Positions 21,862 through 59,594 of a DNA stretch of 64,000 nucleotides are shown in pieces. The notes under the pieces are model-generated. The model was not told where the DNA came from, searched no databases, and saw only the letters and a list, made by a program, of their open reading frames with translations. Position 1 is the first letter of the stretch, and the number at the start of each line of letters is the position of its first letter. The stretch is from Candidatus Sysuimicrobium calidum (GTDB lineage Bacteria; Sysuimicrobiota; Sysuimicrobiia; Sysuimicrobiales; Sysuimicrobiaceae): positions 14,085 through 78,084 of the forward strand of contig JAVKHN010000006.1 in NCBI GenBank assembly GCA_031459935.1, in the 5' to 3' direction. The position numbers and the translations under genes were made by a program.

Positions 21862-21866
21862 GACCT

Positions 21867-23843: not shown

Positions 23844-23847
23844 GTAT

Positions 23848-24174: not shown

Positions 24175-24175
24175 G

Positions 24176-24757
24176 ATGAGCTCGGAACTCATCAGCCTGC
24201 TCGAGCGAGAAGCCCAGGCGGAGCGGGAACGCCTGCTAGAGGAGGCGCGTCAGCGGGCGCGGGATATCCTCCAGCAGGCGGAGGCGGAGGCTGCAAACCT
24301 CCTGGAGGCCCACCGCCGGAGGGTGGATGCAGAGCTCGAGGCGGTCCGCATCCGCGCACAGGGCGTGGCCCAGCTGCGGGCCACGTCCCTGGTGCTGGCG
24401 GCCAAGGACGAGCAGATCGCGGAGGTCTTCCAGCGGGCCCGGCAGGAGCTGGAGCGCCTGAGCCGGGACCCCTCTCGCTACGAGCCGGTCCTCCGGGCTC
24501 TCCTCCAGGAGGCGGTGGCGGGGTTCCGGGAGCGGGTGGTGGTGGAGTGCGCGGAGCAGGACCTTCCCCTCGTCCAGGCCGCGGTACAGGCCCTGGGCCT
24601 GGCGGCGGAGGTGCGTCCGAATCCGGAGCTGTGGGGAGGTGTGCGGGTCCGTAGCGCGGACGGCCGCTTCGTGGTGGAGAACACCCTCCTCTCGCGCCTG
24701 GAGCGGGCCCGGCAGGTGCTGCTCTCGGAAGTGGCAGACATCCTGTGGGGGGGGTAG
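24176..24757 (+). CDS. atpE: A/V-type ATPase subunit E
   Basis: 193 aa. N-terminal long helix (LLEEARQRARDILQQAEAEAA) and a globular C-terminus ending GGVRVRSADGRFVVENTLLSRLE. Confidence 0.88.
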   Translation: MSSELISLLEREAQAERERLLEEARQRARDILQQAEAEAANLLEAHRRRVDAELEAVRIRAQGVAQLRATSLVLAAKDEQIAEVFQRARQELERLSRDPSRYEPVLRALLQEAVAGFRERVVVECAEQDLPLVQAAVQALGLAAEVRPNPELWGGVRVRSADGRFVVENTLLSRLERARQVLLSEVADILWGG

Positions 24758-24763
24758 GGAGGG

Positions 24764-25792
24764 GTGCCGGAGGACTTCGGCTACATCAACGCCCGGGTGA
24801 AGGGAATGCGCTCCCGGTTGCTGCCGCCCGGCCGCCTGGAGGAGTTGTTGGGGCTTGCGGACCTGGAGAGCTTCATCCATGCCCTGGGCAACACGCCCTA
24901 CGGGCCCGAGCTCCAGGAGGCCCTTACCCGGTACCAGGGCCTGCGGGCGGTGGACGAGGCACTGATGCGGGCCTTCCAGAAAACTGCCCAGAAGATCCTG
25001 GGGTTTTCGGAGGGGAAGGCCAGGGCTCTGATCCGGGTGTTCCTGGTCCAGTGGGATCTCCACAATCTGCGCACCATTCTCCGAGCGAAGCACTCGGGGC
25101 ACCCCCTCGAGGCGACGGAGCAGAACCTGATCCCCGCAGGGGAGCTCACGGAGGTCCGGCTCCGGGAGCTGCTGGCCCAGCCGGATCTCGCGGCCCTAGC
25201 TGGCACCCTGGCCACCTGGGAGCACCCGTTGGCGGAGGCGCTGCTTGCGGCGATCCGGCAGTACGAGTCCACCCAGGATCTGCTGAGCCTGGAGCTGAGC
25301 CTGGACCGGGGGTACTTCGAGTGGGCTCTCCGCGTGGCCCGGGGCATGGGGCACAATGAGACGCTGGTCCGGGACGTGGTCCGGATGCAGATCGACTTCA
25401 CGAACGTGAAGACCGCGTTCAAACTGCAGCAGCTGGCGGACCTCTCCCGGGAGGAGCGGGAGCGCTTCTTCCTTCCCGGGGGGAGTGTGGTATCTCGGGA
25501 TGTGTTCCTGAACCTGGCGGATCCCACGACCGCGGAGTTCGGGCTGCGGGAGCTGCGTGGACGGGGAATCCATCCGGAGGGCCAGACGGCGGGGGAGGTG
25601 GAGCGCTTCCTGGAGGAGGAGAGTACCCGCCGGATGGCTATGCTCTATCTGGGGGATCCGCTCGGAATTGACGTGGTGATCGGGTTCCTCACCATGCTGA
25701 GCAGTGAGATCCGAAACCTGCGCCTCATCGCCCGAAGCAAGGCCCTCGGGATCCCCCGGGATCTGGTCCGCCGGGAGATGGCCCTGGTGTAG
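24764..25792 (+). CDS. atpC: A/V-type ATPase subunit C (eukaryotic d homologue)
   Basis: GTG start. PEDFGYINARVKGMRSRLL is the typical start of this subunit. 342 aa. Confidence 0.88.
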   Translation: MPEDFGYINARVKGMRSRLLPPGRLEELLGLADLESFIHALGNTPYGPELQEALTRYQGLRAVDEALMRAFQKTAQKILGFSEGKARALIRVFLVQWDLHNLRTILRAKHSGHPLEATEQNLIPAGELTEVRLRELLAQPDLAALAGTLATWEHPLAEALLAAIRQYESTQDLLSLELSLDRGYFEWALRVARGMGHNETLVRDVVRMQIDFTNVKTAFKLQQLADLSREERERFFLPGGSVVSRDVFLNLADPTTAEFGLRELRGRGIHPEGQTAGEVERFLEEESTRRMAMLYLGDPLGIDVVIGFLTMLSSEIRNLRLIARSKALGIPRDLVRREMALV

Positions 25793-25798
25793 CCGGAG

Positions 25799-26119
25799 AT
25801 GCGGTACCGGGTGGCTGTGATCACGGACTCGGAGACCGCCACGGGCTTCCGGCTGGCGGGGGCTGAGGTCTTCGAGGCCGACACCCCCGAGGGGGTGGTC
25901 GGGGCCCTCCGGGAGGTGCTCCGGGGAGACTACGGCCTCGTGGCGGTGAACGAAGTCCTCCTCACCGAAGCGGAGGAAGAGATCCGGCGGGCAATGCGGG
26001 GGAGGGATCTCCCCGTGGTCGTACCCTTCCCGGCCCCTCGGGCGCAGCTGGAGTCCGGGGAGGAGTACATCGCGCGCCTGGTGAAGGAGCACATCGGGTT
26101 CTACGTGAAGCTGCGGTAG
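25799..26119 (+). CDS. atpF: A/V-type ATPase subunit F
   Basis: 106 aa. RVAVITDSETATGFRLAGAEVF is the typical subunit F N-terminus. Confidence 0.88.
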   Translation: MRYRVAVITDSETATGFRLAGAEVFEADTPEGVVGALREVLRGDYGLVAVNEVLLTEAEEEIRRAMRGRDLPVVVPFPAPRAQLESGEEYIARLVKEHIGFYVKLR

Positions 26120-26131
26120 GGAGGGAGAGCC

Positions 26132-27886
26132 GTGGCCATCCAGGGAGAAATCATTAAGATCGCGGGACCCGCGGTGATCGCCCGGGGCATGCGAGGGGCC
26201 CGGATGTACGACATCGTCCGGGTCGGGAAGGAGAGGCTTGTGGGGGAGATCATCCGTCTCAGCGGGGACACCGCCTTCATCCAGGTGTACGAGGACACCA
26301 GCGGCCTGTACGTGGGTGAGCCCGTGGAGAGCACAGGGCTGCCGCTGGCGGTGGAGTTGGGACCGGGACTGTTGAGCAACATCTACGATGGGATCCAACG
26401 GCCTCTTCCGGAGGTACGGCGGCAGCAGGGGGATTTCATCCGGCGCGGTGCGGTGGCCCCCGCCCTTGACCGGAACCACCGGTGGCCCTTCCGCCCCCGG
26501 GTCTCCGTGGGGGAGGAGGTGGGGCCGGGAGACGTGATCGGGGAGGTCCAGGAATTCGGACTGGTGCACCGGATTCTGGTACCCCCGGATGCGAAGCCCT
26601 CCCGGGTGGCGGAGATCCATGAGGGCGAGTTCACGGTGACGGATGTGGTGGCGCGGTTGGAGAACGGTCTGGAGCTGCGTCTCATGCAAACCTGGCCCGT
26701 GCGCCTGGCCCGACCCGCCGCGCGCCGTCTGGATCCACGGGAGCCGCTGGTGACGGGGCAGCGGATCATCGACGTGCTGTTCCCCGTAGCCATGGGCGGG
26801 ACCGCGGCCATTCCGGGCCCGTTCGGCAGCGGCAAGACCGTGATGCAGCAGACCCTGGCCAAGTGGGCGGATGCGGACGTAATCATCTACGTGGGCTGCG
26901 GGGAGCGGGGCAACGAGATGACCCACGTACTGGACGAATTCCCGGAGCTGGAGGATCCCCGCACAGGCCGGCCCCTCATGGAGCGCACCATCATCATCGC
27001 GAATACCAGCAACATGCCCGTGGCCGCCCGGGAGGCTTCCGTCTACACGGGCATCACCATGGCGGAGTACTGGCGGGACCAGGGCTATAAAGTGGCCCTC
27101 ATGGCGGACTCCACCAGCCGCTGGGCCGAGGCCATGCGGGAGATCTCCAGTCGCCTGGAGGAGATGCCCGCGGAGGAGGGGTATCCGCCCTACCTCTCCA
27201 GCCGGCTTGCGGCCTTTTACGAGCGCGCGGGACGGGTGGTGTGCCTGGGCCGCCCGGAGCGATGGGGAGCCATCACCGTGATCGGCGCGGTGTCCCCCCC
27301 GGGCGGAGACCTCTCGGAGCCCGTGACCCAGGCCACCCTGCGCATCGTGGGGACCTTCTGGTCCCTCGATGCCTCCCTTGCCCACCGGCGGCACTTCCCC
27401 GCCATCCACTGGCTACGGTCCTACAGCCTCTACACCCCTCTGTTCCGGGAGTGGTACCGGCAGAACCTCCCGGAGGACTTCGAGGAGCTGCGCAACCGCG
27501 CCAGCGCCCTGCTGCAGCAGGAGGCGGAGCTGCAGGAGATCGTGCAGCTGGTAGGCCCGGATGCCCTGCAGGACGACCAGCGGCTGGTGATCGAGGCGGG
27601 CAAGATGCTCCGGGAGGACTTTCTGCAGCAGTCCGCCTTCTCGGATGTGGACGCCTACTGTCCGCCCATCAAGTCCTACGGGATCCTGAAGGCCATCCTG
27701 GTCTTCTACGACGAGGCGCTTGCAGCCCTTCACCGGGGCATGCCCATGGACGAGATCCTCAACCTCCCGCACATCCAGGAGATCGCCCGGATGAAGGAAG
27801 TGCCCGCGGACCGGTTCCCCGCATACACGGAGGACCTCCTGCGTCGGCTGCGGGAGGACCTGCGGGCACCGGTGCGGGCGAGTTAG
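26132..27886 (+). CDS. atpA: A/V-type ATPase catalytic subunit A
   Basis: GTG start. [10 protein letters not shown]-loop, the non-homologous insert region, and [18 protein letters not shown]. 584 aa. Confidence 0.95.
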
Positions 27887-27898
27887 GAGGGGAGGAAC

Positions 27899-29314
27899 AT
27901 GGAGCTGGCCACCAAACGCTATCAGTCCATCTCCTACATCTCTGGGCCCCTGCTGTTCGTGGAGGGGGCCCGGGACCTAGCCTACGGGGCCATCGTGAAC
28001 ATCCACCTCCCGGACGGCCGCGTGCGAGGAGGACAGGTGATCGAGGTCGACGAGCAACACGCGGTGATCCAGGTGTTCGAGGAGACCACGGGCCTCGATG
28101 TGGCCCGCACCTCCGTGAGTCTGCGGGAGGACGTGGCCCGGTTCGGGGTGAGCCCGGAGATCATCGGTCGACGGTTCAACGGCCGCGGGGAGCCCATCGA
28201 CGGGCTTCCCCCCATCATCCCGGAGAAGCGACTGCCCATCATCGGCTCTCCCATCAACCCTGCAGCCCGGCAGCGGCCCCAGGAGTTCATCCAGACGGGG
28301 ATCAGCAGCATCGATGGCCTCAACACCCTGGTGCGCGGTCAGAAGCTTCCCATTTTCTCCGGTGCGGGACTGCCGCACAACGAGCTGGCGGCCCAGATCG
28401 CCCGGCAGGCCAAGGTGCTGGGGGAGGCGGAGGAATTCGCGGTGGTGTTCGCTGCCATGGGAATCACCCAGCGAGAGGCCGCCTTCTTCATCGAGCAGTT
28501 TGAGGCCACGGGGGCGCTGGCCCGGAGCGTGGTGTTCCTGAACCTGGCGGACGACCCAACCATCGAGCGTCTCATGACCCCGCGTCTCGCGCTCACCACC
28601 GCGGAGTACCTTGCCTTCGAGCTGGACAAGCACGTGCTCGTCATCCTCACGGACATGACGAACTACTGCGAAAGCCTGCGGGAAATCGGAGCCGCCCGGG
28701 AGGAGATCCCCGGGCGGCGCGGATACCCCGGGTACATGTATACGGACCTCGCCACCATCTACGAGCGCGCGGGCCGTATCCAGGGCCGCAAGGGTTCCGT
28801 AACGCAGATCCCCATCCTCACCATGCCGGACGACGACATCACGCATCCCATTCCGGACCTCACGGGATACATCACGGAGGGACAGATCGTTCTCAGCCGG
28901 GCCCTGCACCGTCAGGGCATCTACCCACCCATCAACCCTCTGCCGAGCCTCTCACGGCTGATGAACGACGGCATCGGCCCTGGCCGCACCCGGGAGGACC
29001 ACGCGGGACTCAAGGACCAGCTCTTCTCCGCGTACGCGAACGGCGTGGACCTGCGGCGTCTGGTGGCCATCATCGGGGAGGAGGCCCTCACGGAGCGGGA
29101 CCGGCTCTACCTGCGGTTCGCGGAGGCCTTCGAGCGGGAGTTCCTCAACCAGGGGAACACGGAACGATCCATCACGGAGACCCTCAACCTGGGCTGGAAG
29201 CTCCTCTCCATGTTCCCGCGGGAGGAACTGAAGCGGGTGAAGCAGGATCACGTGGAGAAGTACTACTTCGGAGAGGTAATCCGGCAGCTGTGGGAGGAGG
29301 AGGAACGGCTATAG
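27899..29314 (+). CDS. atpB: A/V-type ATPase subunit B
   Basis: [62 protein letters not shown]. 471 aa. Confidence 0.95.
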
Positions 29315-29360
29315 CGCAGGATCCCCGAAGTGGGGACGCTGAGCCAAAGGAGCACAGGGT

Positions 29361-29996
29361 ATGCCGGAACTCGTAAGCCCCACCCGGATGAACCTTCTGC
29401 AGCGCAAGAACCAGCTGCGGGTGGCGCTGCAGGGGGTAGACCTCCTCAAGCGCAAGCGGGATGCGTTGGTGGCGGAGTTCTTCCGGGTGGTCCGGCAGGC
29501 CCTGGAGGCCCGGGATCGCATGAACGCCGCGTGCGAGAAGGCGTACATCGTCCTGAGCCTGGCGAAGGCGGTGGAAGGACGCCAAGCCCTGGAGGCTGCG
29601 GCCCTGGTGGAGCGCCGCCCGATGATGGTGGACATCGAGATCCGGAACATCTGGGGCATCAAGGTGCCGGAGGTTCAGGTGCAGCGGGTTCACCGCTCCT
29701 TCCTGGAGCGGGGACTCAGCCCCACCGCGGTGAGCATGCGAACCCTAGAGAGCACGGAGGCCTTCGAGCGGGTCCTGGACGCCATCCTGGAGGTGGCCGG
29801 CACGGAGCTGCGGTTGCGCAAGATCGGAGAGGAGATCAAGAAGACCACGCGCCGGGTGAACGCTCTGGAGCAGGTTGTGATCCCCCGCATCCGGGCTGAG
29901 ATCCGGTACATCAACGACGTGCTGGAACAGCGGGCCCGGGAAGACGTGTTCCGACTCAAGAGGATCAAGAAGAAGCTGGAGGGAAGGCAGGCTTGA
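29361..29996 (+). CDS. atpD: A/V-type ATPase subunit D (central stalk)
   Basis: SPTRMNLLQRKNQLRVALQGVDLLKRKRDAL and RRVNALEQVVIPR. 211 aa. Confidence 0.92.
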   Translation: MPELVSPTRMNLLQRKNQLRVALQGVDLLKRKRDALVAEFFRVVRQALEARDRMNAACEKAYIVLSLAKAVEGRQALEAAALVERRPMMVDIEIRNIWGIKVPEVQVQRVHRSFLERGLSPTAVSMRTLESTEAFERVLDAILEVAGTELRLRKIGEEIKKTTRRVNALEQVVIPRIRAEIRYINDVLEQRAREDVFRLKRIKKKLEGRQA

Positions 29997-34481: not shown

Positions 34482-34566
34482 GCCCGGATGGCGGAACTGG
34501 CAGACGCGCACGTTTGAGGGGCGTGTGGGGAAACCCGTGGGGGTTCGAATCCCCCTCCGGGCACCA
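34482..34566 (+). tRNA. tRNA-Leu (anticodon GAG)
   Basis: Hand-folded cloverleaf. Acceptor GCCCGGA/TCCGGGC, anticodon arm CACGT-TTGAGGG-GCGTG, long variable arm, T arm GGGGG-TTCGAAT-CCCCC, encoded CCA. Confidence 0.9.
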
Positions 34567-45385: not shown

Positions 45386-46443
45386 CCGTTGTCCTGGTGC
45401 TCCTGCTCCTCGCGACCCCCGCGGTCTCCCAGACCTCGGAGGATCTCTCGGAGGTGGAGCAGGGCCGCCAGGCCGCCCAGCAGGTCGAACGGATCCTGCG
45501 GGTGGTCACGGATCCTGCGGTGGCGGGTCGGGTGGAGCGGATCGGGGCGACCGTGGCGGCCCAGACGGAGCGGCCGCAGCTCCCTTGGACCTTCCGGGTG
45601 GTGGAGCATCGGTTTCCCAACGCGGTGGCCCTGCCGGGCGGGTTCGTGTACGTCACGAGTGCCATGCTGCAGCTCGTGCGCACGGACCACGAGCTGGCGG
45701 GCTTACTGGCCCACGAGGCCGCCCACGTGGCCCGGCGACACCACCGTCGCATGGCGCAGGAGGCGCTGCGCACCAATTTCCTCGTGATGCTGGTGGCGGT
45801 GCTGGTGCGGGATCCCCGCATCACCACGGGCGCGCAACTGGTGGGCGGCGGGATCCTCAGCGCCTTCTCGCGGGAGCTGGAGCGGGAGGCGGACCTGGCG
45901 GCGGTAGGATACGTGCAGCGCACCACCTGGCACCCCGTGGGGGTCCTCACCTTGCTGGAACGGCTCGCGCGGGAGGAACAGCTCTCCGCAGGCCCCGATC
46001 CCGGAGCTTTCCGCACGCACCCCACCTGGGGAGAACGCATCCGGGCGGTGGAGGAGGAGCTGGGGCGTCGGGGGATCCCCCTGCACCGCCGGATCTCCAT
46101 GGGGTTTCTGCGGGTGGAGGCGGGCGGGGAGGGACCCGTGGGCGAGGTGCGGGTGAACGGGGAGGTGGTGATGCGGCTTGCGGGCGGGGAAGAACGGGCT
46201 AGGGCGGTGGTCGCCCACCTCGATCGGATCTTCAACGAGGATCCCTCGCCCCTGGACGTAGAGGTCACGGGGGTGCTCGGCGAATGGAGGATCCGGGTCG
46301 CAGGGGAGCCGGTGGTTGTGATCACGGACGAGGACGCACGGCTCCTGGGCCGCCCTCGGCGGGACCTCGCGCAGGAGTACGCCGTGGCCCTGCGGCGGGT
46401 GATCACGGAGGACCGGAGGCGCCGGGCTCTGGGAGGCTACTGA
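45370..46443 (+). CDS. secreted M48-family zinc metalloprotease
   Basis: Signal peptide MLRPVAVVLVLLLLATPAVSQ and the HEAAHVARRH (HExxH) motif with downstream ELEREADL. Confidence 0.8.
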   Translation: MLRPVAVVLVLLLLATPAVSQTSEDLSEVEQGRQAAQQVERILRVVTDPAVAGRVERIGATVAAQTERPQLPWTFRVVEHRFPNAVALPGGFVYVTSAMLQLVRTDHELAGLLAHEAAHVARRHHRRMAQEALRTNFLVMLVAVLVRDPRITTGAQLVGGGILSAFSRELEREADLAAVGYVQRTTWHPVGVLTLLERLAREEQLSAGPDPGAFRTHPTWGERIRAVEEELGRRGIPLHRRISMGFLRVEAGGEGPVGEVRVNGEVVMRLAGGEERARAVVAHLDRIFNEDPSPLDVEVTGVLGEWRIRVAGEPVVVITDEDARLLGRPRRDLAQEYAVALRRVITEDRRRRALGGY

Positions 46444-48322
46444 ACTCCTCCTCCATCAGGCGCAGGAATGCCTCCACCACGACCGGATCGAAGTGCTTTC
46501 CCGCCTGCTCCCGGATGTACTGCAGGGCCTTTTCCCGGGGCCAGGCGGGCCGGTAGGGACGGTGACTGGTGAGGGCGTCGTAGACGTCCACCACCGCGAA
46601 GATGCGGGCCGCCAGCGGAATCTCCTCCCCCCTTAGCCCCCGTGGGTATCCGGTTCCATCCCACCGCTCGTGGTGGCAGTACGGGATGTCGAGGGCGGGT
46701 CGAAGGAATTCGATGCCCGCGAGCCACCGGTACGCGTACACGGGGTGCAGGCGCATAATGGCCCACTCCTCCTCCGTGAGAGGACCGGGTTTCCGCAGGA
46801 TCTCGTCCGGGATCCCGATCTTGCCGATGTCATGGAGCAGGGCCCCGCGGCGGATGTGCACGATCTCGGATTCCGGAACCCCCATGGCTCGGGCCAGGGC
46901 CACGGTGAGGTCCGCCACCCGCTGGGTGTGCCCCTCCGTCTCCTGGTCCCGCAGGTCCAGAGCGCGCGACCACCCCTCGAGGGTAGCATCGTAGGCCATC
47001 TGCAGCTCCACGTTGGCCCGCCGCAGCCCCTCGAGTAAGGTTCCGTTGTCAATGGCCACCGTGGCCTGGCCCGCCAGGGCCTCCAGGAAGTTCCACCACT
47101 CGGGATCCTCCGGAAAGCCCTCCCGGGAGAGCACCTCCAGCACGCCCAGGACCTGGCCCTTTGCGGTTAAGGGCACTGCGCAGTAGGCCCGGAACCCGTC
47201 TTCCGCGAATCGAGCCTCCCGGCTCCCGAGCGCCTCCGAGAGGTTGGAGATGTGTAGCCGCTCGCGGCGCAGAACCACCTGGCTTACCAGTCCATTCCCG
47301 AGCCGTACCCGCTGGGCTACCAGATCTAGCCGCACTCCCCGGGCGGCCACGGCCTGAAAGGAAGCGGTGCCGGGATCCAGCAGCAGCACCGCCGCGGCCT
47401 CCACGCCGAGGTGCGTGGTGAGCTGGTCCAGGATCACGTTCAGGGTGATCCGGAAGTCGAAGCTCGCGGTGATGGCGGTGTCCACAAGACGCAGGGCCTG
47501 CAACCGCTGCACCTGTAGCTCTAGCCGCTCCCGCAGCCGGCGCTCCCGCGCCTCCGCCTCCACAAGCGGCGTCACATCCTCCGCCACGGAGACGAAGTGG
47601 GTGATGTGGCCCGCCTCGTCCCGCAGGGCGGAGACGGTGAGCACGATCCAGAAGAGGCTCCCGTCCCTGCGTTTCGCTTGGATCTCCCCGCGCCACCATC
47701 CGCCCGTTGCCATCGCCTCCCGGAACGCCTGTCGTTGCTCCTCCGTGAAGGGAAGGGCGAGCTCCTCCACGGGTCTTCCCAGGACCTCCTCCGGTGGAAA
47801 CCTCGTGACCTCCGTCCACCGTCGGTTCACATATGTCACACGCCGCTCGGCGTCCATCACCAGCACCATCCCCGGGCCCTGCTCCACCGTCTGCCACAGG
47901 AGCCGGACCTGTGCCTCCGCCTGCCGCCGGGCCCGCTGCACCTCCGCCTCCCGCAGCTCGCGGGCCACCGCGGCGGGAAGCCGCGTGAGGCTGTCCTTCA
48001 TCACGTAGTCGTTCGCTCCGGCCCGCATCATCTCCACCGCGAGCTCCTCGCCCACGGCCCCGCTCACCACGAGGAAAGGCAGGTCAGGGTCGTGGGCCCG
48101 CACCATGCGGAGGGCCTCCTGGGCGTGAAAGCCGGGCAACCGGTAGTCGCACAGCACCACGTCCCAGGCCTCCGCTCTCAGGGCATCGGCCAGGCTTGAG
48201 GCAGAGTCCACCCGTCGCCACCGCACCGCGTAGCCGTTCCGCTGCAAGAGCCGCACGATCAGTACCGCGTCGTCGTCCACGTCCTCCACGAAAAGTGCCC
48301 GCAGGAGCTGTGCTTCACTCAC
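46403..48322 (-). CDS. response regulator receiver-PAS-GAF-HD-GYP protein (putative c-di-GMP phosphodiesterase)
   Basis: GTG start. Receiver (ALFVEDVDDD...VLCDYRLPG), PAS, GAF, then HD-GYP (HTQRVADLT, LLHDIGKIGIPDEIL, HHERWDGTGYPRGL). 639 aa. Confidence 0.85.
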   Translation of the reverse strand: MSEAQLLRALFVEDVDDDAVLIVRLLQRNGYAVRWRRVDSASSLADALRAEAWDVVLCDYRLPGFHAQEALRMVRAHDPDLPFLVVSGAVGEELAVEMMRAGANDYVMKDSLTRLPAAVARELREAEVQRARRQAEAQVRLLWQTVEQGPGMVLVMDAERRVTYVNRRWTEVTRFPPEEVLGRPVEELALPFTEEQRQAFREAMATGGWWRGEIQAKRRDGSLFWIVLTVSALRDEAGHITHFVSVAEDVTPLVEAEARERRLRERLELQVQRLQALRLVDTAITASFDFRITLNVILDQLTTHLGVEAAAVLLLDPGTASFQAVAARGVRLDLVAQRVRLGNGLVSQVVLRRERLHISNLSEALGSREARFAEDGFRAYCAVPLTAKGQVLGVLEVLSREGFPEDPEWWNFLEALAGQATVAIDNGTLLEGLRRANVELQMAYDATLEGWSRALDLRDQETEGHTQRVADLTVALARAMGVPESEIVHIRRGALLHDIGKIGIPDEILRKPGPLTEEEWAIMRLHPVYAYRWLAGIEFLRPALDIPYCHHERWDGTGYPRGLRGEEIPLAARIFAVVDVYDALTSHRPYRPAWPREKALQYIREQAGKHFDPVVVEAFLRLMEEEFSSLPEPGASGPP

Positions 48323-48326
48323 GGTC

Positions 48327-48767
48327 TCACCTCACGGGCGGAGGCTCGTTGAGCAGCAACCAGTACAACCCCAGCCGCCGCACCGCCTCCACGAACTCCA
48401 AAAAGTCCACGGGCTTACACACATAGCTGTTGCACCCCAGGCGGTAGCTCGCCACGAGGTCCTGTTCCTCCTGGGAGGAGGTGAGCACCACCACGGGCAC
48501 CAGGCGCGTGTGCTCGTTGGACCGGATGCGCTGCAGGACCTCCAGCCCGTCGAGCCTGGGGAGCTTCAGGTCCAGCAGCACCACGGCTGGCAGCTCCCGC
48601 GGGTCCCGGCCCGCGTACTTCCCGGTCCCGAACAGGTACTCCAGGGCCTCTACCCCGTCCTCCGCCACCACCACCTCGTTCGCGAGGTGGTGGGCGCGCA
48701 GGGCCCGGAGGGTGAGGGCCACGTCGTCCGGGTTATCTTCCACCAGCAGGATGGTCCTGGCCCGCAT
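48327..48767 (-). CDS. stand-alone CheY-like response regulator receiver
   Basis: [43 protein letters not shown]. 146 aa. Confidence 0.88.
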
Positions 48768-50658
48768 CGGCTTCCTCCCGCAGTCCCGGCAGGGTGAAGA
48801 AGAACGTCGCGCCCCGATCCACCTCGGCTTCCGCCCACACCCGCCCGCCGTGCCGCGCCACGATCCGCTGCACCGTCGCGAGCCCGATGCCGGATCCGGG
48901 GAACTCCGAGGGCCTGTGCAGGCGCTGGAAGGGGGCGAAGAGCTTCGCTGCGTACTGCATCTCGAACCCCACCCCGTTGTCCCGTACGAAGCAGGCGGAG
49001 CCGTGCGGGGTCGGTGCCACGCCGAACTCGATCCGGGCGGGGGATCTGGGCCGGGTGAACTTCCACGCGTTGTGAAGGAGGTTTTCCAGGGCCACGCGTA
49101 TAAGCCGCGGATCCGCCCGGGCCCGGATCCCGGGCGTGACGTGCACCTCCACAGTCCGGTCGGGCTCTCGCTGGCGCAGCTCCTCCACGGTGGCCCACAC
49201 GAGTGTGCTCAGATCCACCTCCTGCACCTCGAGCGGCGCCCGGGTGACGCGGGAGAACTGCAGGAGGTCGTCGATGAGGGTGGCCATGCGCTGGCTTGCG
49301 GCCCGAACCCGCTGCAGGTAGCCGCGGCCGACCTCATCCAGCCGGTCTGCGTAGTCCTCCAGCAGGGCCTGGCTGAATCCGTCGATGCTGCGCAGGGGCG
49401 CCCGGAGGTCGTGGGCCACGGAGTAGCTGAAGGCCTCGAGATCCCGGTTCGCCGCCTCCAGCTCCGCGGTCCTCAGCCGCACCCGCTCCTCGAGCTCTCG
49501 TGTGAGGGCTCGCAAAGCCTCCTCCGCCATTTTCTGCTCCGTCACGTCCACCAGGGTGCCGATCACCGCGGGCCGGCCCTGGGAGAACGTACGGGCGCCG
49601 TATACCTCCACGTGGATCACCCGGCCGTCCCTGCGCACGCCCCGGAACCCGTACCGCAGCGCCTGCACCTCTCCTTCCAGGCGACGGCGGAGGTTCTCGT
49701 CCACGAGGGGCCAGTCCTCGGGATGCACCAAGTCCTTGGGGCCGCGCCGTTCGATGAGCTCCTCCCGGGGGTACCCGAAGATCTCCGCGAGGGCGGGGTT
49801 CGCGTACCGGAACACGCCGTCCTGGACGAGGTACACGCCCACCAGGGACTGTTCCACGAGACTCCGAAACAGCTCCTCCGACTCCCGCAGGGCCAGCTCC
49901 ACCCGGTGACGCTCCGTGACGTCGTGAGCCACCACCAGGGCCGCGGGCCGGCCTGCGTAGGTGAGGGTGTGGGAGACGATCTCCACGTGGAGGATCCGGC
50001 CGTCCCTGGTGCGATGCCGCCACTGCCCGGAGGCCTGGAGAGCGGGCCGAGGCCTCTGCACGTCCTCCAGGAGCTTCGGCACGTCTTCCGGAGGCCGGAT
50101 GTCGGTGATGCGCATCCGCAAAAACTCCTCCCGGCTATAGCCGTACCGCTGGATTGCGGCTTCGTTCACCTCCAGGAACTGCAGCGTCTGCAGGTCGTAC
50201 ACCCACATGGGTTGGGGGTTACAGCGGAAGAGCATGGCCAGGGCCGCCTCGAGCTGCTGCCGCGCCTCCGCCTCCTCAAGGCGCACCGCGAGCTCCGTGG
50301 CCCGGGCGGTTTCGCCCGTGACCAGCCTCCGCAGGAACCCCACCATCACCGCGAGGGCAGGAGTCGCCAGGGCCAGCACCGCGATCCGGAGCCCGTTCTC
50401 CGCGGAGTACCGGAAGGGTTGACCGGGCTCGGAGAAGACCCAGGCGGCGTAGGCGAAGCTCAGAAGGGCGCTCACGAGCCCCGACCCCACCCCGCCCGCG
50501 TAGGCACTGTAGGCCACCGCGAGGAGATAGGCGGCCGCGGGATTGGGGAGGCGAATCGCCCAGTGGCTCAGGAGCTCGAGGGCCAGGAGGACGAGCACGG
50601 TGAGGACGGGACCCGTGAGGGGGGCCGCCGTGACCCGTTCCCTCCGTCCTCGTTGCAC
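48733..50658 (-). CDS. membrane-anchored multi-PAS sensor histidine kinase
   Basis: GTG start. N-terminal 4-helix membrane domain (DUF4118-like), three PAS-like segments, HisKA H-box [16 protein letters not shown], and HATPase (NAWKF, DNGVGF, GSGIGLA). Confidence 0.88.
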
Positions 50659-50770: not shown

Positions 50771-50846
50771 GCGCCCGTAGCTCAGAGGATAGAGCGTTGG
50801 CCTCCGGAGCCAAAGGCCGCAGGTTCGAATCCTGCCGGGCGCGCCA
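50771..50846 (+). tRNA. tRNA-Arg (anticodon CCG)
   Basis: Hand-folded. Acceptor GCGCCCG/CGGGCGC, D arm GCTC-AGAGGATA-GAGC, anticodon arm TTGGC-CTCCGGA-GCCAA, T arm GCAGG-TTCGAAT-CCTGC, encoded CCA. Confidence 0.9.
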
Positions 50847-54795: not shown

Positions 54796-56109
54796 ATGAC
54801 CCCTTCCGTGCAGACCCGCGTGAAGCGCCGGGAGCCCGCAGCGAACTGGCGGCTGGAAGGAGAAGTCTGCGTGGTAGGATCCGGGATCGCGGGAATCTCC
54901 GCCGCCCTGGAGGCTGCCCGGCTCGGGCGAGAGGTGGTCCTCGTGGAGGGGGCTCCTTTCGTCGGAGGCCAGGCGGTGGGGGCTCCCATCGGCACCATTG
55001 CAGGGCTCTTCTCCTGTGGCCGGCACCCGCGCCAGCTGACCCATCTCGTGGCGGATGAACTCCTGGCTGCCCTGGAACGGGAGAACGCCGTGTACCGTCG
55101 CTACTCGGAGAAGGCCCGGACCGTCGTCCTCGTGTACGACGAAGTGGTGCTGGGACGGTGGATCGAGCGGGAGGTGCAGCGACGGGGGATTCGGGCGGTG
55201 ACGGGAGCCGTTCTGCGGGAGGTGTGGCGGGAGGGGGCGAGGATCCGCTCCCTCTCCTTCCTCACCCGGTTCGGGGAGCTCGAGGTGACGGCACCGATGT
55301 ACATCGATGCTTCAGGGGATGCCGCGGTGGCCTGGCTCGCCGGGCTCCCCTGTCGAGAACCCGACCGCCCCATTTACGGTTCGCAGATGGCGGTCCTGGA
55401 AGGGGTGCAGGACGAGCCGCTCCTGCCGGAGTCCGCGTTCTTCGCCAGGCTCCAGTCCGTCCTGCAGGAGAAGGGAGACCGCTACGGGCTGACCCGCCAG
55501 GATGGACTGGTGTTCCTGTTCCCGCAGCGGGGGATGGCCGTTGTGAACATGACCCATGTGCAGACCCCCTTGGATCCGGAGGCCCTCACCCGCCGGAGCC
55601 TGGAGGGGAAGGATCAGGTGGATCGGGCGATCCGGCTGCTGCGGGAGGAGTTCCCGGAGGCGTTCGGAAAGGCACGGGTGCGCATGTACGGACAGCTGGG
55701 GATCCGGCAGACCCGGTGGATCGTCGGCAGATACCAGCTGTCCGTGGAGGACGTCCGGACGGGCAGAGGATTTGAGGACGCGATTGCCCGTACCGCATGG
55801 CCCATCGAGCTCCACGACCGGGCAGAGGGATATTACTGGGAACCCTTCGAGGAAGGCCACGTCCACTACGTGCCTCTGCGGAGCCTGATTCCGGAAGGGA
55901 TGGAGAACCTCCTGGCGGTTGGGCGGTGCATCGACGCGGATCCCCTGGCGCTGTCCAGCGTGCGCGTGATGGGCCCCTGCATCGCCATGGGAGCCGCGGC
56001 GGCGCACGCGACGGACCTCTGCCTGAAGAGGTCCGTCCCCATCCCCGAGGTGGACCTAGTTACCCTCCGCGAGCGACTCCGGGCCAACCTGGAGGATCCC
56101 GCTTCGTGA
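54796..56109 (+). CDS. FAD-dependent oxidoreductase (PF12831-like)
   Basis: The ATG at 54796 gives VCVVGSGIAGISAALEAARLGREVVLVEG dinucleotide-binding motif plus C-terminal LLAVGRCIDADPLALSSVRVMGPCIAMG. About 437 aa with no signal peptide. Confidence 0.7.
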   Translation: MTPSVQTRVKRREPAANWRLEGEVCVVGSGIAGISAALEAARLGREVVLVEGAPFVGGQAVGAPIGTIAGLFSCGRHPRQLTHLVADELLAALERENAVYRRYSEKARTVVLVYDEVVLGRWIEREVQRRGIRAVTGAVLREVWREGARIRSLSFLTRFGELEVTAPMYIDASGDAAVAWLAGLPCREPDRPIYGSQMAVLEGVQDEPLLPESAFFARLQSVLQEKGDRYGLTRQDGLVFLFPQRGMAVVNMTHVQTPLDPEALTRRSLEGKDQVDRAIRLLREEFPEAFGKARVRMYGQLGIRQTRWIVGRYQLSVEDVRTGRGFEDAIARTAWPIELHDRAEGYYWEPFEEGHVHYVPLRSLIPEGMENLLAVGRCIDADPLALSSVRVMGPCIAMGAAAAHATDLCLKRSVPIPEVDLVTLRERLRANLEDPAS

Positions 56110-56120
56110 CCCCCACCGGC

Positions 56121-56150
56121 TTGACGATCGCTTCGGAGTATCCCTAAGAT
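56121..56150 (+). promoter_or_regulatory. sigma-70-type promoter for the riboswitch-led transcript
   Basis: TTGACG (56121-56126), 18-nt spacer, TAAGAT (56145-56150), followed by an AT-rich start region. Confidence 0.55.
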
Positions 56151-56167
56151 TTGAAAAAAGTAAACAG

Positions 56168-56254
56168 GCCTCCCGAAAGGGCAAACCCGCAGCAATGCGG
56201 GGGCGCAAAGCCGACGGGGCCGCGGATGCGGTTGGCTGGGTTGCCGAAGGAGGC
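56168..56254 (+). promoter_or_regulatory. c-di-GMP-I (GEMM-I) riboswitch aptamer candidate
   Basis: P1 is GCCUCC (56168-56173) paired with GGAGGC (56249-56254). GGGCAAACC lies at 56179-56187, a CCCGC-AGCAAU-GCGGG hairpin follows, GCGCAAAGCC lies at 56203-56212, and GGGUUGCCGAAGG forms the 3' block. The layout parallels the Vc2 aptamer as remembered. Confidence 0.75.
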
Positions 56255-56265
56255 GCTTAGGAGGT

Positions 56266-56300
56266 CGGGGGATCATGAGAATCCCCCGGCATGTGTTATT
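56266..56300 (+). terminator. candidate expression-platform terminator downstream of the aptamer
   Basis: CGGGGGAU (56266-56273), 7-nt loop, AUCCCCCG (56281-56288), then GCAUGUGUUAUU. The U-tract is imperfect. Confidence 0.4.
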
Positions 56301-56386
56301 GGGCGCTTCTTGAGAGCCTTCTGTTGCCCGCTTCGCCTCCGGGGTCCCCGATTCGGAAAAACTTCACGGAGCGGGGGTGAGGGAGG

Positions 56387-58093
56387 ATGCGCTTTTTCTG
56401 GGTGGCGGGCGTTGTAGCGGTTCTCGTGACTTTGGGGTTCCAGCTCGTTCCTCCTGTTCTCTCGCAGTCCATTGCATCCATCCACTTCCAGGACGTGACG
56501 GACGCGGTGCTCCCCTATCCTGTCCGCCCGCTTGCCGGTTTTCATGGACAGTCCTGGGGCTTCATCGCGGTGGGGGACTATGACAACGACGGCTGGGATG
56601 ATCTTTACATCAACGAGATGAGCATGGTGCACACTGCAGAACATCAGAACATCCATGGCCGTCCCCAGAGCGGGTACCTCCTCCGGAATGTCGGTGGTCG
56701 GTTTGTGGATGAGACTGCGAAACTGCCCATCATCGACGAGGGCACGGAGCACCGGCACGTGGCGGTGTGGTGCGATTTCGACCGGGACGGTGATGACGAT
56801 CTGCTCCTGGGGACCGGGATGGACGATGAGTTTCCTCTCGGTCACCCCGAGCGGATGGTTGGGAACCTCGATGTGTGGCTTCGCAACGACGGCACTCACT
56901 TCACGGACGTGAGCCGCAACGTGGTGGTGGAGGGGTTTGACACCCGCTCATCCAAGGTCTTTCACGGTTACACCTGTGCGGATGTTGACGGGAATGGCTG
57001 GCCAGACATCCTGGTACTGAACAAATTCGCTCCGGAGGTCTACGGGCTGGATGGTGCGACTCCGGTGTTCCGCCTTTACCTGAACCAGGGCGGGCTGCGT
57101 TACCGGGAGGAGGCTGCTGCCCGCGGGTTCAGGGACGCGGAGAGACGGACGAGCAACATCGACCCGTGGGGATTGGGGTGCTACGACTTCAACGGGATTC
57201 GTGGGGTGGACTGCCGCTCTGCGGGCGGAAACCTCGGGCGCTGGATCCTCAACAGGGGTGGCGGGTTCTTCGAGGTTCATACCGGTGTGTATCGCCCCAT
57301 CGCGGACCTCAATGCCTACAGCAATGACCTCGCCTGGGCGGACTACAACGGGGACGGCCTCATTGACCACTCGGACGCCGGGCTTACTCGGTCTGTGAAC
57401 ATCCACGTGAACAACGGATCCACAGCTCACAACGACGGCATGGTGGGTGCTGGTAAGGCTTCTGCCGCCAACCGTGTTCGCCTCCGCAGCACCGCAGCTT
57501 TTGATGCGGACAACGACGGAGATGCGGACCTCTTCGTCACGGTGGAAGGTTCCGGCCCCCTCACGCCGGACGGGAAGGTAACCAAGGCTCCGGATCTCTT
57601 CTTCCGCAACGACAACCTGACTTTCGTGGAGATGGCCCGCGAGGTCGGTCTGGATGGCGGAATCTGCGTGGGCAAGCGGGCTGATTCACGTCCTGCGGAC
57701 CATTGCGCGGGCGGAGGTGGAGCTGCGGTCGTTGACTTCGACCGGGACGGCCGGCTGGATCTCGTGGTCTCCTACACCCCCTGGTTCAAGCCTGCAGGAG
57801 GGGTGGAACGGGTGCGGGTCTACCGCAACGTGACTTCTAATCCCGGGAACTGGGTCGGGCTGATCGTGCAGGGCCGGGACGCTCTGGGGGCTCAGGTCAC
57901 CATCCAGGCGTGCGGCAAGACCTACGTCCGTCGGGTTGTGAACGACACCCACCACCTGGCCCAGAACACGCGGACGATCCACGTGGGGCTGGAGGAGTGC
58001 CGGAATCGGCCCCATGTGACCATCCAGTGGTTGGACGGGACGGTGCACCGGGGGTGGCTTGACGGGAGCCGGTACCACCTGGTGCGGCGGTAG
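56387..58093 (+). CDS. secreted FG-GAP/VCBS repeat protein with a C-terminal ASPIC/UnbV domain (CRTAC1 family)
   Basis: Signal/anchor MRFFWVAGVVAVLVTLGF. Repeated DxDxDGxxD calcium-type repeats (GDYDNDGWDDLY, DFDRDGDDDLL, DVDGNGWPDIL, DYNGDGLIDH, DADNDGDADLF, DFDRDGRLDLV). C-terminal VYRNV...NWVGLIVQG...GAQVTIQ...IHVGL...VTIQWLDG. Confidence 0.8.
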   Translation: MRFFWVAGVVAVLVTLGFQLVPPVLSQSIASIHFQDVTDAVLPYPVRPLAGFHGQSWGFIAVGDYDNDGWDDLYINEMSMVHTAEHQNIHGRPQSGYLLRNVGGRFVDETAKLPIIDEGTEHRHVAVWCDFDRDGDDDLLLGTGMDDEFPLGHPERMVGNLDVWLRNDGTHFTDVSRNVVVEGFDTRSSKVFHGYTCADVDGNGWPDILVLNKFAPEVYGLDGATPVFRLYLNQGGLRYREEAAARGFRDAERRTSNIDPWGLGCYDFNGIRGVDCRSAGGNLGRWILNRGGGFFEVHTGVYRPIADLNAYSNDLAWADYNGDGLIDHSDAGLTRSVNIHVNNGSTAHNDGMVGAGKASAANRVRLRSTAAFDADNDGDADLFVTVEGSGPLTPDGKVTKAPDLFFRNDNLTFVEMAREVGLDGGICVGKRADSRPADHCAGGGGAAVVDFDRDGRLDLVVSYTPWFKPAGGVERVRVYRNVTSNPGNWVGLIVQGRDALGAQVTIQACGKTYVRRVVNDTHHLAQNTRTIHVGLEECRNRPHVTIQWLDGTVHRGWLDGSRYHLVRR

Positions 58094-58166
58094 CGTGGCA
58101 GGGAATCCGGGTCGGGACGTCAAAAACCGTCCTCAACCACGGAACCATGCTTGCCGGAGGGGGAAG

Positions 58167-59594
58167 ATGGGTACGCCGGTCCCCGGGGGAAGTCTGCAGG
58201 CGCTTCTGGATCGCGTGCCGAGCGTAGTGGATCACCTGTACCGGAATCCCAAGGGGGCGCTGCGATCCATCTTCCAGTTGTTCCCGCCCGCGGTCCTCCC
58301 CCCGGAGTTCACCAACTGGCGGGACGAGCAGCGGGCCCGTCGGGAGTCGGTGGCGCTGCTGGATCAGTCGTTTCACATGAGTAACCTCTCTCTGCGGGGC
58401 CCGGATGCCCTGCGGCTGCTGGAAAGCCTGGCCATCAACAGCTTCCGGGACTTCGGTCCGGGGCGTGCGAAGCAGTTCGTGGTGTGCTCCCCGGAGGGAT
58501 ACGTGATCGGGGACAACATCCTCTACGAGCTGCAGGAGGACGCCTTCGTCCTGGTCGGCTCCGAAGTTGTCCAGAACTGGGTGACGTACCACGCGGAGAC
58601 CGGCGGGAGCAGGGTTTCGGTGGAGCGAGACCCGGCGTGGTCTGTGAACCCCACCGGACGGCGGACCGAATACCGGTTCCAGGTGGAGGGGCCGAAGGCC
58701 TTTGCCCTGCTGGAGGTGGCCACCGGCGGGCCGCTGCCGGATGTGAGGTTCTTCCACTGGACGTGGCTCGTCATCGCGGGCCGGAAGGTGCGGGCATTGC
58801 GGCACAGCATGGCCGGAGTCCCGGGCATGGAGCTCTCGGGTCCCTGGGAGGACCGCGAGGCGGTGCGGACCGCCCTCGTGGAGGCCGGCAGGGGGTTCGG
58901 GCTCCGGGAGGTGGGCTCCTTTGCGTACCTGTCGAGCGGCGGGCTGGAGTCCGGATGGGTCCCAAACCCGCTCCCCGCCATCTACACCAGCCCCGAGATG
59001 CGCGCTTACCGGGAGTGGCTTCCTGCCTCAGGGCAGGAAGCTATGGGCTCCCTGGGCGGGAGCTTCTATTCCTCCCGCATCGAGGATTACTACCTGACCC
59101 CCTGGGAGCTGGGGTACGAGCACATCCTCAAGTTCGATCACGACTTCGTGGGACGGCAGGCCCTGCTGGCGCGGGCGCAGAACCGGCACCGGAGGAAAGT
59201 GACCCTCGTCTGGCACCCGGAGGACACCGCTCGGGCTTTTGGCTCTCTTTTGCGTCCGGGGCCGATGGCGAAGTACATGGATATCCCCTGGCTGCACTAT
59301 GCCACCTGGCAATACGACAAGGTCCTGAGCCAGAGAGGTGAGCCGGTGGGGATTGCCCTTTATGCCGGCTATACGTCCAACGAGCGCGCCGTGGTGGCCC
59401 TGGCAGTGGTGGACGAAGAGCACAGCCGGCCTGGAACGGAGGTGGTCCTCGTGTGGGGCGAGGACGGGGGAGGCACCCGCAGCGGCCCGTGGGTGGAGCC
59501 ACACGCCCCCGTGGAGATCCGGGCCACGGTGGCCCCGGTTCCCATCAGCCGGGCCGCCCGGGAGTACCGGGCTGCCATGCGGTCCGGACGCTAG
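58167..59594 (+). CDS. aminomethyltransferase (GcvT)-fold protein, LigM-like tetrahydrofolate-dependent O-demethylase family
   Basis: The ATG at 58167 follows GGAGGGGGAAG. PEFTNWRDEQRARRESVALLDQSFHM, LESGWVPNPLPAIYTSPEMRAYREWLPA and GGSFYSSRIEDYYLTPWELGYEHILKFDHDFVGRQAL closely resemble vanillate/3-O-methylgallate demethylase blocks as I recall them. Confidence 0.6.
   Translation: MGTPVPGGSLQALLDRVPSVVDHLYRNPKGALRSIFQLFPPAVLPPEFTNWRDEQRARRESVALLDQSFHMSNLSLRGPDALRLLESLAINSFRDFGPGRAKQFVVCSPEGYVIGDNILYELQEDAFVLVGSEVVQNWVTYHAETGGSRVSVERDPAWSVNPTGRRTEYRFQVEGPKAFALLEVATGGPLPDVRFFHWTWLVIAGRKVRALRHSMAGVPGMELSGPWEDREAVRTALVEAGRGFGLREVGSFAYLSSGGLESGWVPNPLPAIYTSPEMRAYREWLPASGQEAMGSLGGSFYSSRIEDYYLTPWELGYEHILKFDHDFVGRQALLARAQNRHRRKVTLVWHPEDTARAFGSLLRPGPMAKYMDIPWLHYATWQYDKVLSQRGEPVGIALYAGYTSNERAVVALAVVDEEHSRPGTEVVLVWGEDGGGTRSGPWVEPHAPVEIRATVAPVPISRAAREYRAAMRSGR

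Follow-up and report, generated by a model that had tools for sequence, protein, structure and literature searches.

The window analyzed here, a stretch of 64,000 nucleotides (nt) of contig JAVKHN010000006.1, carries on its forward strand a structured RNA leader between an FAD-oxidoreductase open reading frame (ORF), which ends at 56109 upstream of a promoter, and the ATG start codon at 56387 of a gene for a protein of the CRTAC1 family (Table 1). To judge from its sequence and predicted pairing, the segment 56168-56254 of this leader is a canonical, well-conserved class I riboswitch for cyclic di-GMP (c-di-GMP-I, or GEMM-I), an RNA of a known kind. The segments that follow it point, with a probability that we put at roughly 55%, to a transcriptional OFF switch that would work by kinetic strand exchange and through which c-di-GMP would lower the output of the CRTAC1-family gene. 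A GEMM-I-like riboswitch had been proposed here from the letters of the DNA (the sequence-only reading below) and, on direct reading of 55900-56560, all the elements listed in that proposal, among them a second copy of GCCUCC at 56335-56340, are found where it had placed them.

The product of the downstream gene matches the Pfam families FG-GAP_3 (4.8e-23), FG-GAP (6.2e-15), and UnbV_ASPIC (4.1e-09), and its N-terminal hydrophobic segment MRFFWVAGVVAVLVTLGFQLVPPVLSQS looks, by eye, like a signal peptide, in agreement with the secreted FG-GAP/ASPIC protein that had been announced. The gene is monocistronic or leader-proximal in its transcript. Within 55900-56600, the sigma-70-like site of Table 1 is the only promoter-like one (shuffled sequences give 0.0), and transcription would start near 56157. 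This TTGACG-18-TAAGAT promoter is present as the sequence-only reading described it, and its position is conserved: orthologous leaders keep TTGAC(A/G) and a TA(A/G)NNT -10 element at an unchanged distance from the aptamer.

The whole window was scanned against Rfam at gathering thresholds, and two matches are obtained, a tRNA-Arg(CCG) at 50771-50846 and the c-di-GMP-I family RF01051 at 56170-56248 (+). The latter scores 57.2 bits, above the gathering score of 35 bits (E = 1.5e-08 for the 64-kb window), and spans model positions 1-87 of 87. The proposal of a GEMM-I-like element is supported by this score, and also by the ligand-contact nucleotides and the conservation in orthologues described below. 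The sequence blocks GGCAAACC, CGCAAAGCC, and GGGUUGCCGAA occur in the GEMM-I order, as had been noticed. The aptamer takes up roughly the first 100 nt of the predicted transcript; in its three-helix junction, with the P2 and P3 hairpins linked by AAA and closed by P1, all of the 27 proposed pairs form in the window.

Table 1. Leader of the CRTAC1-family gene and the gene itself (window coordinates; Vc2, GEMM-I aptamer of Vibrio cholerae; SD, Shine-Dalgarno)
Feature	Position	Strand	Description
Sigma-70-like promoter	56121-56150	+	TTGACG (-35) 56121-56126, 18-nt spacer, TAAGAT (-10) 56145-56150
P1 5′ strand GCCUCCCG	56168-56175	+	Pairs with 56249-54, plus 56245-46 across the AA bulge
J1/2 AAAGG	56176-56180	+	G56180 equivalent to Vc2 G20 (alignment to RF01051 and RF03167)
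P2 arm	56181-56206	+	G56181-C56206, C56182-G56205, internal loop, 6-bp helix, GCAA tetraloop (Rfam alignment)
AA linker	56207-56208	+	A56207 equivalent to Vc2 A47; invariant in all orthologues
P3 arm	56209-56242	+	AGCC 56209-12 with GGUU 56239-42; GGAU loop
J3/1 and P1 3′ strand	56243-56254	+	G, C56244 (C92 equivalent), CG, AA bulge, GGAGGC 56249-54
Second copy of the P1 3′ strand, GGAGGUC	56260-56266	+	Can pair with GGCCUCC 56167-73, giving the alternative helix P1′
Terminator-like hairpin GUCGGGGGAU/AUCCCCCGGC and tail AUGUGUUAUU	56264-56300	+	Arms 56264-73/56281-90; tail 56291-56300
CU-rich segments GCGCUUCUU (56304-12) and GCCUUCU (56316-22)	56304-56322	+	From free and constrained folds; putative function
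Predicted SD-sequestering hairpin	56336-56386	+	CCUCC 56336-40/GGAGG 56382-86; GUCCCCG 56344-50/CGGGGGU 56372-78
CRTAC1-family gene, 568 aa	56387-58093	+	FG-GAP/VCBS beta-propeller repeats and C-terminal UnbV_ASPIC

In P1, GCCUCC (56168-56173) is fully complementary to GGAGGC (56249-56254), and two further pairs, C56174-G56246 and G56175-C56245, extend the helix past an AA bulge (56247-48), in line with the family consensus. The 6-bp closing helix drawn earlier is therefore exact for the outer pairs, and the full P1 has 8 bp. P2 contains an internal loop AAA/GGC, with C56204 equivalent to C44 of Vc2, a 6-bp helix CCCGCA/UGCGGG (56186-91/56196-56201), and a GCAA tetraloop of the GYRA type of GNRA loops (56192-95). 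The sequence-only reading had rightly nested a hairpin between the conserved blocks, but not as it is formed: the 5-bp stem with a hexaloop does not hold, and a "CC" had been counted twice. In P3, CGGGGCCGC (56215-23) pairs with GCGGUU (56228-33) and CUG (56236-38) around a GG bulge (56234-35), of which G56235 is the equivalent of G83. By alignment, C56204 and G56235 occupy the positions of the interhelical Watson–Crick pair between P2 and P3 (C44-G83 in Vc2), which has been called universally conserved (PMC4744006); both nucleotides are invariant in orthologues and would form the same pair. The 11-nt tetraloop receptor is missing from P3, its columns being deleted in the Rfam alignment. GYRA loops are almost never accompanied by the receptor, and about half of the GEMM RNAs lack it (PMC1950547); its absence is thus a documented state and not the failure of a defining feature.

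All six orthologous leader types (proteins 65-85% identical; the count covers leaders with enough upstream DNA) carry the aptamer above an Rfam gathering score, with 56.8-61.2 bits. Leaders L081-L086 reach 56.8-60.3 bits on RF01051, and L088-L095 are listed, after clan competition, under RF03167 (c-di-GMP-I-GGC) only. Among the orthologous leaders, identity is 92% in the aptamer columns versus 58% over the whole leader, which is rich in insertions and deletions. Such a pattern is expected when an aptamer is under selection and its platform drifts, and it points to strong purifying selection on the aptamer in the orthologues. In five other contigs that carry the protein of the window, the leader is identical to that of the window.

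When the seven distinct leaders are compared, 98.4% of the pair cells hold standard pairs, versus 34-47% with the partners slid. Substitutions keep the pairing in all but three cells and introduce eight further pair types; all P2 cells and 98.9% of the P3 cells are paired in the orthologous leaders. There is one full compensatory change in this set, C-G to U-A in P3 of L082. Because the seven leaders are too similar for statistical covariation, a covariance model with the full P1/P2/P3 structure (R1) was built from the orthologous leaders. A scan of metagenomes with a DNA pattern yields at least 120 diverse GEMM-I loci, none of them from the orthologue clade among the matches listed, and these served both for family-wide covariation and as controls. 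R1 was then used to align 114 GEMM-I RNAs, 108 of them distinct, from 100 metagenomic loci found with the pattern. On some short metagenome contigs, R1 also finds clustered or tandem GEMM-I aptamers (four on L111 and on L147, three on L103 and on L178).

In this alignment, 94.4% of the cells are paired versus 77.5% in shuffles, and none of 500 shuffles reaches any of the observed measures, the alignment being fitted to the model, which favours structure. Compensatory changes occur at 24 of the 29 pairs, including all six outer pairs of P1 and all six pairs of the P2 helix. The P1 register was also checked without an alignment, in 42 distinct leaders with the CGAAAGGGC...CCGAA frame in common: of the 6 positions, 4.02 are paired, versus 2.77 +/- 0.16 with shuffled partners. 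The compensatory changes that the sequence-only reading had suggested looking for, in P1 and P2, are found across the 108 relatives; the one compensatory change among the orthologues lies in P3.

The CRTAC1 gene is found by tblastn in none of the metagenomic GEMM-I loci of the pattern scan. Conversely, R1 and regular expressions detect no GEMM-I aptamer in 80 loci that encode distant CRTAC1 homologues (23-31% identical), obtained in a protein scan of genome contigs (mostly Acidobacteriota and Bacteroidota) and of no use for covariation. R1 also finds none beside P0008, a CRTAC1 paralogue 40% identical to the window protein. The riboswitch is therefore a trait of the orthologue group and not of the CRTAC1 protein family.

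The ligand triad of Vc2, G20/A47/C92, corresponds to G56180/A56207/C56244, and all three nucleotides are invariant in the orthologues. In Vc2-type aptamers, G20 recognizes G-alpha of c-di-GMP and C92 pairs with G-beta (PMC5888326, PMC6140456), with A47 intercalated between the two ligand bases (PMC5888326, PMC4744006). In the relatives that sense 3′3′-cyclic GMP-AMP (cGAMP), or GEMM-Ib, an A replaces G20 (PMC6140456). This class was rejected, since position 56180 is G, not A, in the window and in all orthologues. The c-di-GMP-II family (RF01786), which had been named as a control, gives no match at E<=10 in 56000-56500 even with permissive filters, and the whole 64-kb window has none at the gathering score. 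In a permissive search, the GGC variant RF03167 is displayed first by E-value after clan competition, with 52.3 bits. It was also rejected for the window: the score lies below the gathering score of 59, and the variant-defining G47 is an A (GCAAAGC versus GCGAAGC in the variant).

The aptamers of L088-L095 (e.g., L088:3735-3811) score 60-61 bits on RF03167, above 59, yet have A at the variant-defining position; the threshold alone therefore fails to separate the variant from canonical GC-rich members. An annotation based on Rfam would probably label these aptamers wrongly as the GGC variant class. It is very improbable that the aptamer-like sequence is a decayed, non-functional relic or a sensor of another ligand, be it 3′3′-cGAMP or the unknown ligand of the GGC/UAU variants. 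The RF03167 scores just given, in the window and in L088-L095, and the missing receptor of P3 could be read in that sense. Against this, the window and all orthologues have neither the GGC-defining nor the cGAMP-defining nucleotide, the aptamer is near-invariant while the flanking leader is at most 58% identical, and receptor-less RNAs with GYRA loops make up about half of the family (PMC1950547). In every feature that can be tested on a sequence, the element appears as a c-di-GMP-I aptamer and departs from the GGC, GEMM-Ib, and c-di-GMP-II classes.

Downstream from the aptamer, the hairpin at 56264-56290 has 10 bp, seven of them G-C, with a 7-nt loop and a predicted energy of -17.6 kcal/mol. 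The suggestion of a GC hairpin with a U-rich tail as the expression platform holds in that hairpin and tail are real; the tail, however, is weak here. In L081, L083, and L085, homologous hairpins are followed by strong U-tracts, GUUUUGUUGUG or CUGUUUUUGCUUUG, and the energies in these three leaders and the window range from -16.7 to -22.0 kcal/mol. The same four leaders contain a feature that had been overlooked, a second copy of the P1 3′ strand. In the window this copy (GGAGGU, 56260-65) overlaps the base of the hairpin; in all four, a second GGAGG(C/U) stands 4-5 nt beyond P1 and abuts the GC hairpin. The P1 5′ strand can thus pair with either copy, in P1 or in P1′. The base 5′ of GCCUCC never matches the nucleotide that follows the first copy (G.G, A.A, A.G, and G.A in the four leaders), and the extra outer pair that the second copy allows covaries, being A-U in L081 and L083 and G-C in L085 and the window. 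In 4/4 leaders P1′ is more stable than P1, with -12.4 versus -12.0 kcal/mol in the window, -13.9 versus -11.9 kcal/mol in L081, -13.9 versus -12.9 kcal/mol in L083, and -15.3 versus -12.3 kcal/mol in L085. In the nascent transcript, before the 3′ arm of the hairpin is made, the pairing of minimum free energy (MFE) is P1′.

Of 107 other GEMM-I leaders, only 1 repeats the P1 3′ strand exactly within 40 nt, and in this set the P1 5′ strand is no more complementary to what lies downstream than to shuffled partners; the duplication of the P1 strand is therefore clade-specific and not generic. Antiterminators made from the P1 3′ strand or from P3 were tried and rejected: the best duplexes with the terminator arms, which involve the P3 3′ strand (P2 in the window), leave the hairpin before the U-tract free to form and lend no support to an ON logic. 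The MFE folds of the whole leader are dominated by long-range GC-rich pairings that differ between orthologues, and were unused as evidence.

From these elements, an OFF switch could operate as follows. With c-di-GMP bound, P1 would be locked onto the first GGAGGC (56249-54) and the second copy left free, so that the hairpin could form in full and, with its U-rich tail, stop transcription ahead of the gene. With no ligand bound, GGCCUCC of the P1 5′ side would re-pair with the duplicate GGAGGUC; the resulting P1′, slightly more stable than P1, would take the base of the terminator stem (3 nt of the 5′ arm in the window, 4-5 nt in the relatives). The terminator would be shortened and shifted away from the U-tract, with more read-through. 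Translation may be a second layer of control, through the structured SD region of the read-through mRNA. High c-di-GMP would then mean less of the secreted beta-propeller protein.

Several observations weigh against such a switch. The tail AUGUGUUAUU is a weak U-tail, and a single terminator-like site in 700 nt compares with an expectation of 0.7 +/- 0.8 from shuffles. The overlap of P1′ with the 5′ arm is small in the window, and the predicted ligand-free fold retains an 8-bp hairpin. In L081 and L083, P1 together with the complete terminator is the thermodynamic optimum even without ligand, and the model therefore requires kinetic control. The covariation of P1′ comes from four sequences only. 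In the more distant leader types L082, L088, and L091, the hairpin is present and both the U-tail and the duplicated strand are absent; the proposed mechanism is therefore not general for the orthologue group. From biology, one might expect a secreted adhesin-like protein to be induced by c-di-GMP, not repressed. Finally, many GEMM terminators overlap P3, which implies an ON logic (PMC1950547), an overlap not shared by the hairpin of the window. The weak tail and small overlap, the need for kinetic control, the three distant leader types, and the four-sequence covariation are the reasons why the OFF switch is held to the probability given at the outset.

An ON switch with the same aptamer, in which c-di-GMP would prevent the terminator or another inhibitory structure so that the CRTAC1-family protein is made at high c-di-GMP, in the biofilm or sessile state, is quite unlikely. 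The hairpin overlaps neither P1 nor P3 and can form whenever P1 uses the first GGAGGC, as in the ligand-bound state, and no structure was found in which ligand binding sequesters either arm of the terminator. This stands against a plausible biology, the induction by c-di-GMP of an extracellular adhesin-like beta-propeller, with a 40%-identical paralogue located in an exopolysaccharide-type gene cluster, and against the precedent of the many GEMM RNAs in which terminators compete with the aptamer (PMC1950547). There is also, on the side of an ON switch, a complementarity between the terminator 3′ arm and the P3 3′ strand in L081, L083, and L085 (-12.3 to -16.8 kcal/mol); in the window, the best upstream partner of that arm is GCGGGGGC in P2 (-13.4), not P3.

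Control of translation by the same aptamer is also unlikely. Here, with P1 locked, GCCUCC 56335-40 and the segment 56344-50 would pair with the SD region 56372-86; without ligand, the GGAGG sequences at 56249 and 56260 would titrate the CU-rich segments 56304-22 and 56335-40 and free the ribosome-binding site, the hairpin 56264-90 being a spacer. The sequence-only reading had the second GCCUCC sequester GGGAGG. Such a helix is indeed predicted, although its sequence is unconserved in relatives and GGGAGG (56381-86) is probably not the working SD. GGGAGG abuts the AUG directly, and because of this zero spacing and of the alignment with GAGGUGA-N5-6-AUG in relatives, the working SD is more likely GGGGGUGA (56373-80). 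With P1 forced, the fold pairs CCUCC 56336-40 with GGAGG 56382-86, and 56344-50 with 56372-78. However, blocking the P1 5′ strand leaves this SD hairpin in the predicted fold, and without constraints the MFE fold pairs that strand (CCUCCC 56169-74) with GGGAGG. Every predicted state thus has the SD paired, be it in the anti-SD helix or with the P1 5′ strand, which gives no sign of a switch that depends on ligand. A local anti-SD/SD hairpin occurs in every orthologue, but its sequence differs from one to the other and the anti-SD is unconserved.

The CU-rich segments have two possible partners, AGGAGGCGC (56248-56, which covers the P1 3′ strand and the linker) and the second copy, and either pairing would enclose the hairpin; the helix AGGAGGCGC:GCGCUUCUU covaries, with CGC:GCG in the window and CAC:GUG in L081, which favours translational control. 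So do the more distant leaders without U-tails and the other GC-rich GEMM-I leaders (L106, L133, L156) in which GGAGG of the P1 3′ strand doubles as SD. On the other hand, translational control leaves unexplained the good U-tracts after the hairpin in three relatives and the end, inside the hairpin, of a natural deletion.

This deletion bears also on the proposed OFF switch. In L087 (JGI contig Ga0450851_011434; L087:95-110), 129 nt are missing relative to L081:3777-3905, with loss of the aptamer, both GGAGGC copies, and the 5′ arm, the loop, and three Cs of the 3′ arm of the hairpin. The promoter, of the L081 type, and the downstream leader are kept. An identical deletion is present on a 247.5-kb contig of another sample (L220, upstream of the gene at 1501), so that the allele is found in two independent JGI metagenome assemblies; L219, L221, and L222 have an intact leader and encode the same 571-aa protein (P0011) as L220. 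The deletion therefore segregates as an allele and does not stem from misassembly. Transcription from it should be independent of c-di-GMP. The deletion fits a sensor and hairpin that form a dispensable negative module; alone, it does not decide between ON and OFF. A more specific version of the OFF switch, which we hold tentatively and as somewhat against the odds, is an uncommon "decoy-strand" platform, with the P1 3′ strand duplicated 5 nt downstream and P1′ as the antiterminator, in which c-di-GMP would repress the CRTAC1/ASPIC protein and populations would harbor a c-di-GMP-blind deletion allele.

Two small ORFs cover the leader and both were rejected as genes. The 88-aa ORF (56151-56417), which the sequence-only reading thought better explained as RNA, has no Pfam match and a flat GC content by codon position (0.58/0.63/0.64), versus 0.76-0.82 at the third position (GC3) in the flanking genes. 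Its frame meets a stop codon inside the aptamer in L091 and extends to only 45 aa in L085, and the translated sequence 3′ of the aptamer is unrelated between orthologues; the judgment that this region is RNA is borne out. A 12-codon ORF, MRIPRHVLLGAS, runs from AUG 56275 to UGA 56313, across the hairpin and its U-rich tail, with its AUG 10 nt after AGGAGG (56259-64). That AUG is absent from all relatives, and the ORF is probably due to chance.

In a search of 5.8 billion proteins, the CRTAC1-family protein has only about eight close clusters (65-85% identical), called, where named, "CRTAC1 family protein [Armatimonadota bacterium]". The deposited model of one of them, P0004 (L083:3893, L084), has 532 aa, and an in-frame ATG 36 codons upstream aligns with the starts of all orthologues; the annotated start is probably too short, and the upstream ATG would restore a signal-peptide-like N terminus. 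The contigs of the orthologues fall into two groups. One has the synteny of the window: two solute-binding proteins, FAD oxidoreductase, a gap, CRTAC1, a GCV_T-fold gene, S21, YqeY, NUDIX, and an aminotransferase. Two such FAD-oxidoreductase/riboswitch/CRTAC1/GCV_T loci, with proteins about 85% identical, are present in assembly GCA_031458675.1 (L084, L228), which suggests that this bin mixes two related populations. The other group is the P0006/P0007 lineage (L088-L095, e.g., L091:2347-3627, minus strand), where the riboswitch and CRTAC1 gene are divergent to an adjacent GGDEF gene, a diguanylate cyclase gene, across an intergenic region of about 370-490 nt. The paralogue P0008 (L096:4001-5683) overlaps the stop codon of a polysaccharide pyruvyl transferase gene in an exopolysaccharide-type cluster that also has asparagine synthase and PMT_2 glycosyltransferase genes; this context hints at a role in extracellular polysaccharide or matrix.

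The gene 74 nt 3′ of the CRTAC1 gene (58167-59594, +) has a GCV_T fold, with the NCBIfam models DesA (561 bits, cut-off 800) and LigM (505 bits, cut-off 580) as its best matches. DesA and LigM are tetrahydrofolate-dependent aromatic O-demethylases. Because no promoter-like or terminator-like site is found between the two genes (57950-58400), they may be co-transcribed; in L082 and L091, the GCV_T-fold gene is not at that position. The window as a whole is core chromosome, of 67% GC, with genes for SDH, Nuo, a V-type ATPase, GAPDH/PGK, OGDH, POR, and MetRS. A two-component cluster on the minus strand (46403-50658) comprises a PAS histidine kinase (48733-50658), a stand-alone receiver (48327-48767), and a REC-PAS-GAF-HD_5 protein (46403-48322), whose HD domain matches the HD-GYP c-di-GMP phosphodiesterase family NF053512 with 171 bits (cut-off 400). 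This last protein is a candidate c-di-GMP-degrading enzyme about 8 kb upstream of the riboswitch; c-di-GMP turnover genes would therefore lie near the riboswitch. A complete V/A-type ATPase operon (G-like, I, K/c, E, C, F, A, B, D) extends over 21520-29996 (+), adjoining complex I genes. ARAGORN reports a tRNA-Leu(GAG) at 34482-34566 (+) that is not listed by the Rfam gathering-threshold scan.

The c-di-GMP-I family has been curated since 2007-2008. The aptamer as such teaches nothing new about riboswitch biology, and any Rfam-based annotation would find it. What it brings is the placement of a bacterial CRTAC1/ASPIC FG-GAP protein in a c-di-GMP regulon of the Armatimonadota, a poorly studied phylum. 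We found no paper that ties c-di-GMP riboswitches to FG-GAP/ASPIC proteins or to Armatimonadetes. The bacterial CRTAC1/ASPIC FG-GAP proteins form a widespread secreted family for which, to our knowledge, no bacterial function is known. The duplicated P1 strand, rare in other GEMM-I leaders, offers a testable strand-exchange mechanism, and the 129-nt deletion allele a ready natural comparison for the physiological role of the switch. Should the decoy-strand platform be true, it would give the first regulatory context for bacterial proteins of the CRTAC1 family, together with a naturally occurring riboswitch knock-out for comparison.

With the aptamers Vc2/Vc1 of V. cholerae (RF01051), the element shares the P1/P2/P3 junction, the GGCAAACC and CGCAAAGCC blocks, the AAA linker, the G20, A47, and C92 contacts, the interhelical C-G pair, and a 5′-leader location, the gene downstream coding for a secreted or surface-related protein. 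It differs by the P2 loop (GCAA of the GYRA type here, GAAA there), by the short P3 with a GGAU loop and without the 11-nt receptor, by a J1/2 one nucleotide shorter, by an internal loop with GGC (common among GC-rich GEMM-I members) instead of GAC, and by its host in the Armatimonadota. It resembles the receptor-less "type 2" GEMM RNAs (PMC1950547) in the GYRA tetraloop and in a second hairpin without receptor and with a bulge near its base (GG 56234-35). In those RNAs the terminator often overlaps the 3′ part of the second hairpin (PMC1950547), whereas the hairpin of the window stands 10 nt past P1 and overlaps the duplicated P1 strand.

The c-di-GMP-I-GGC variant (RF03167) is close in overall sequence, receptor-less, and has an explicit P1, but its consensus has G at the A47 position (GCGAAGC) where the window and all orthologues have A (GCAAAGC). 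GEMM-Ib (Geobacter Gs1761) has the same fold and belongs to the same clan, with A at the position of G20 instead of G56180 (PMC6140456). For the regulatory logic, the nearest parallel lies in Clostridioides difficile. The Cd1 riboswitch in the flgB leader of that organism is reportedly (Sudarsan et al. 2008 and later work) a c-di-GMP-I OFF switch that terminates transcription. The logic proposed for the window would be the same as that said to hold for Cd1, with the ligand-bound aptamer leading to an intrinsic terminator and the gene OFF; the antiterminator would differ, being P1′ with the duplicated strand in the window and not, as is reported for Cd1, a helix that the P1 3′ strand forms with the 5′ arm of the terminator.

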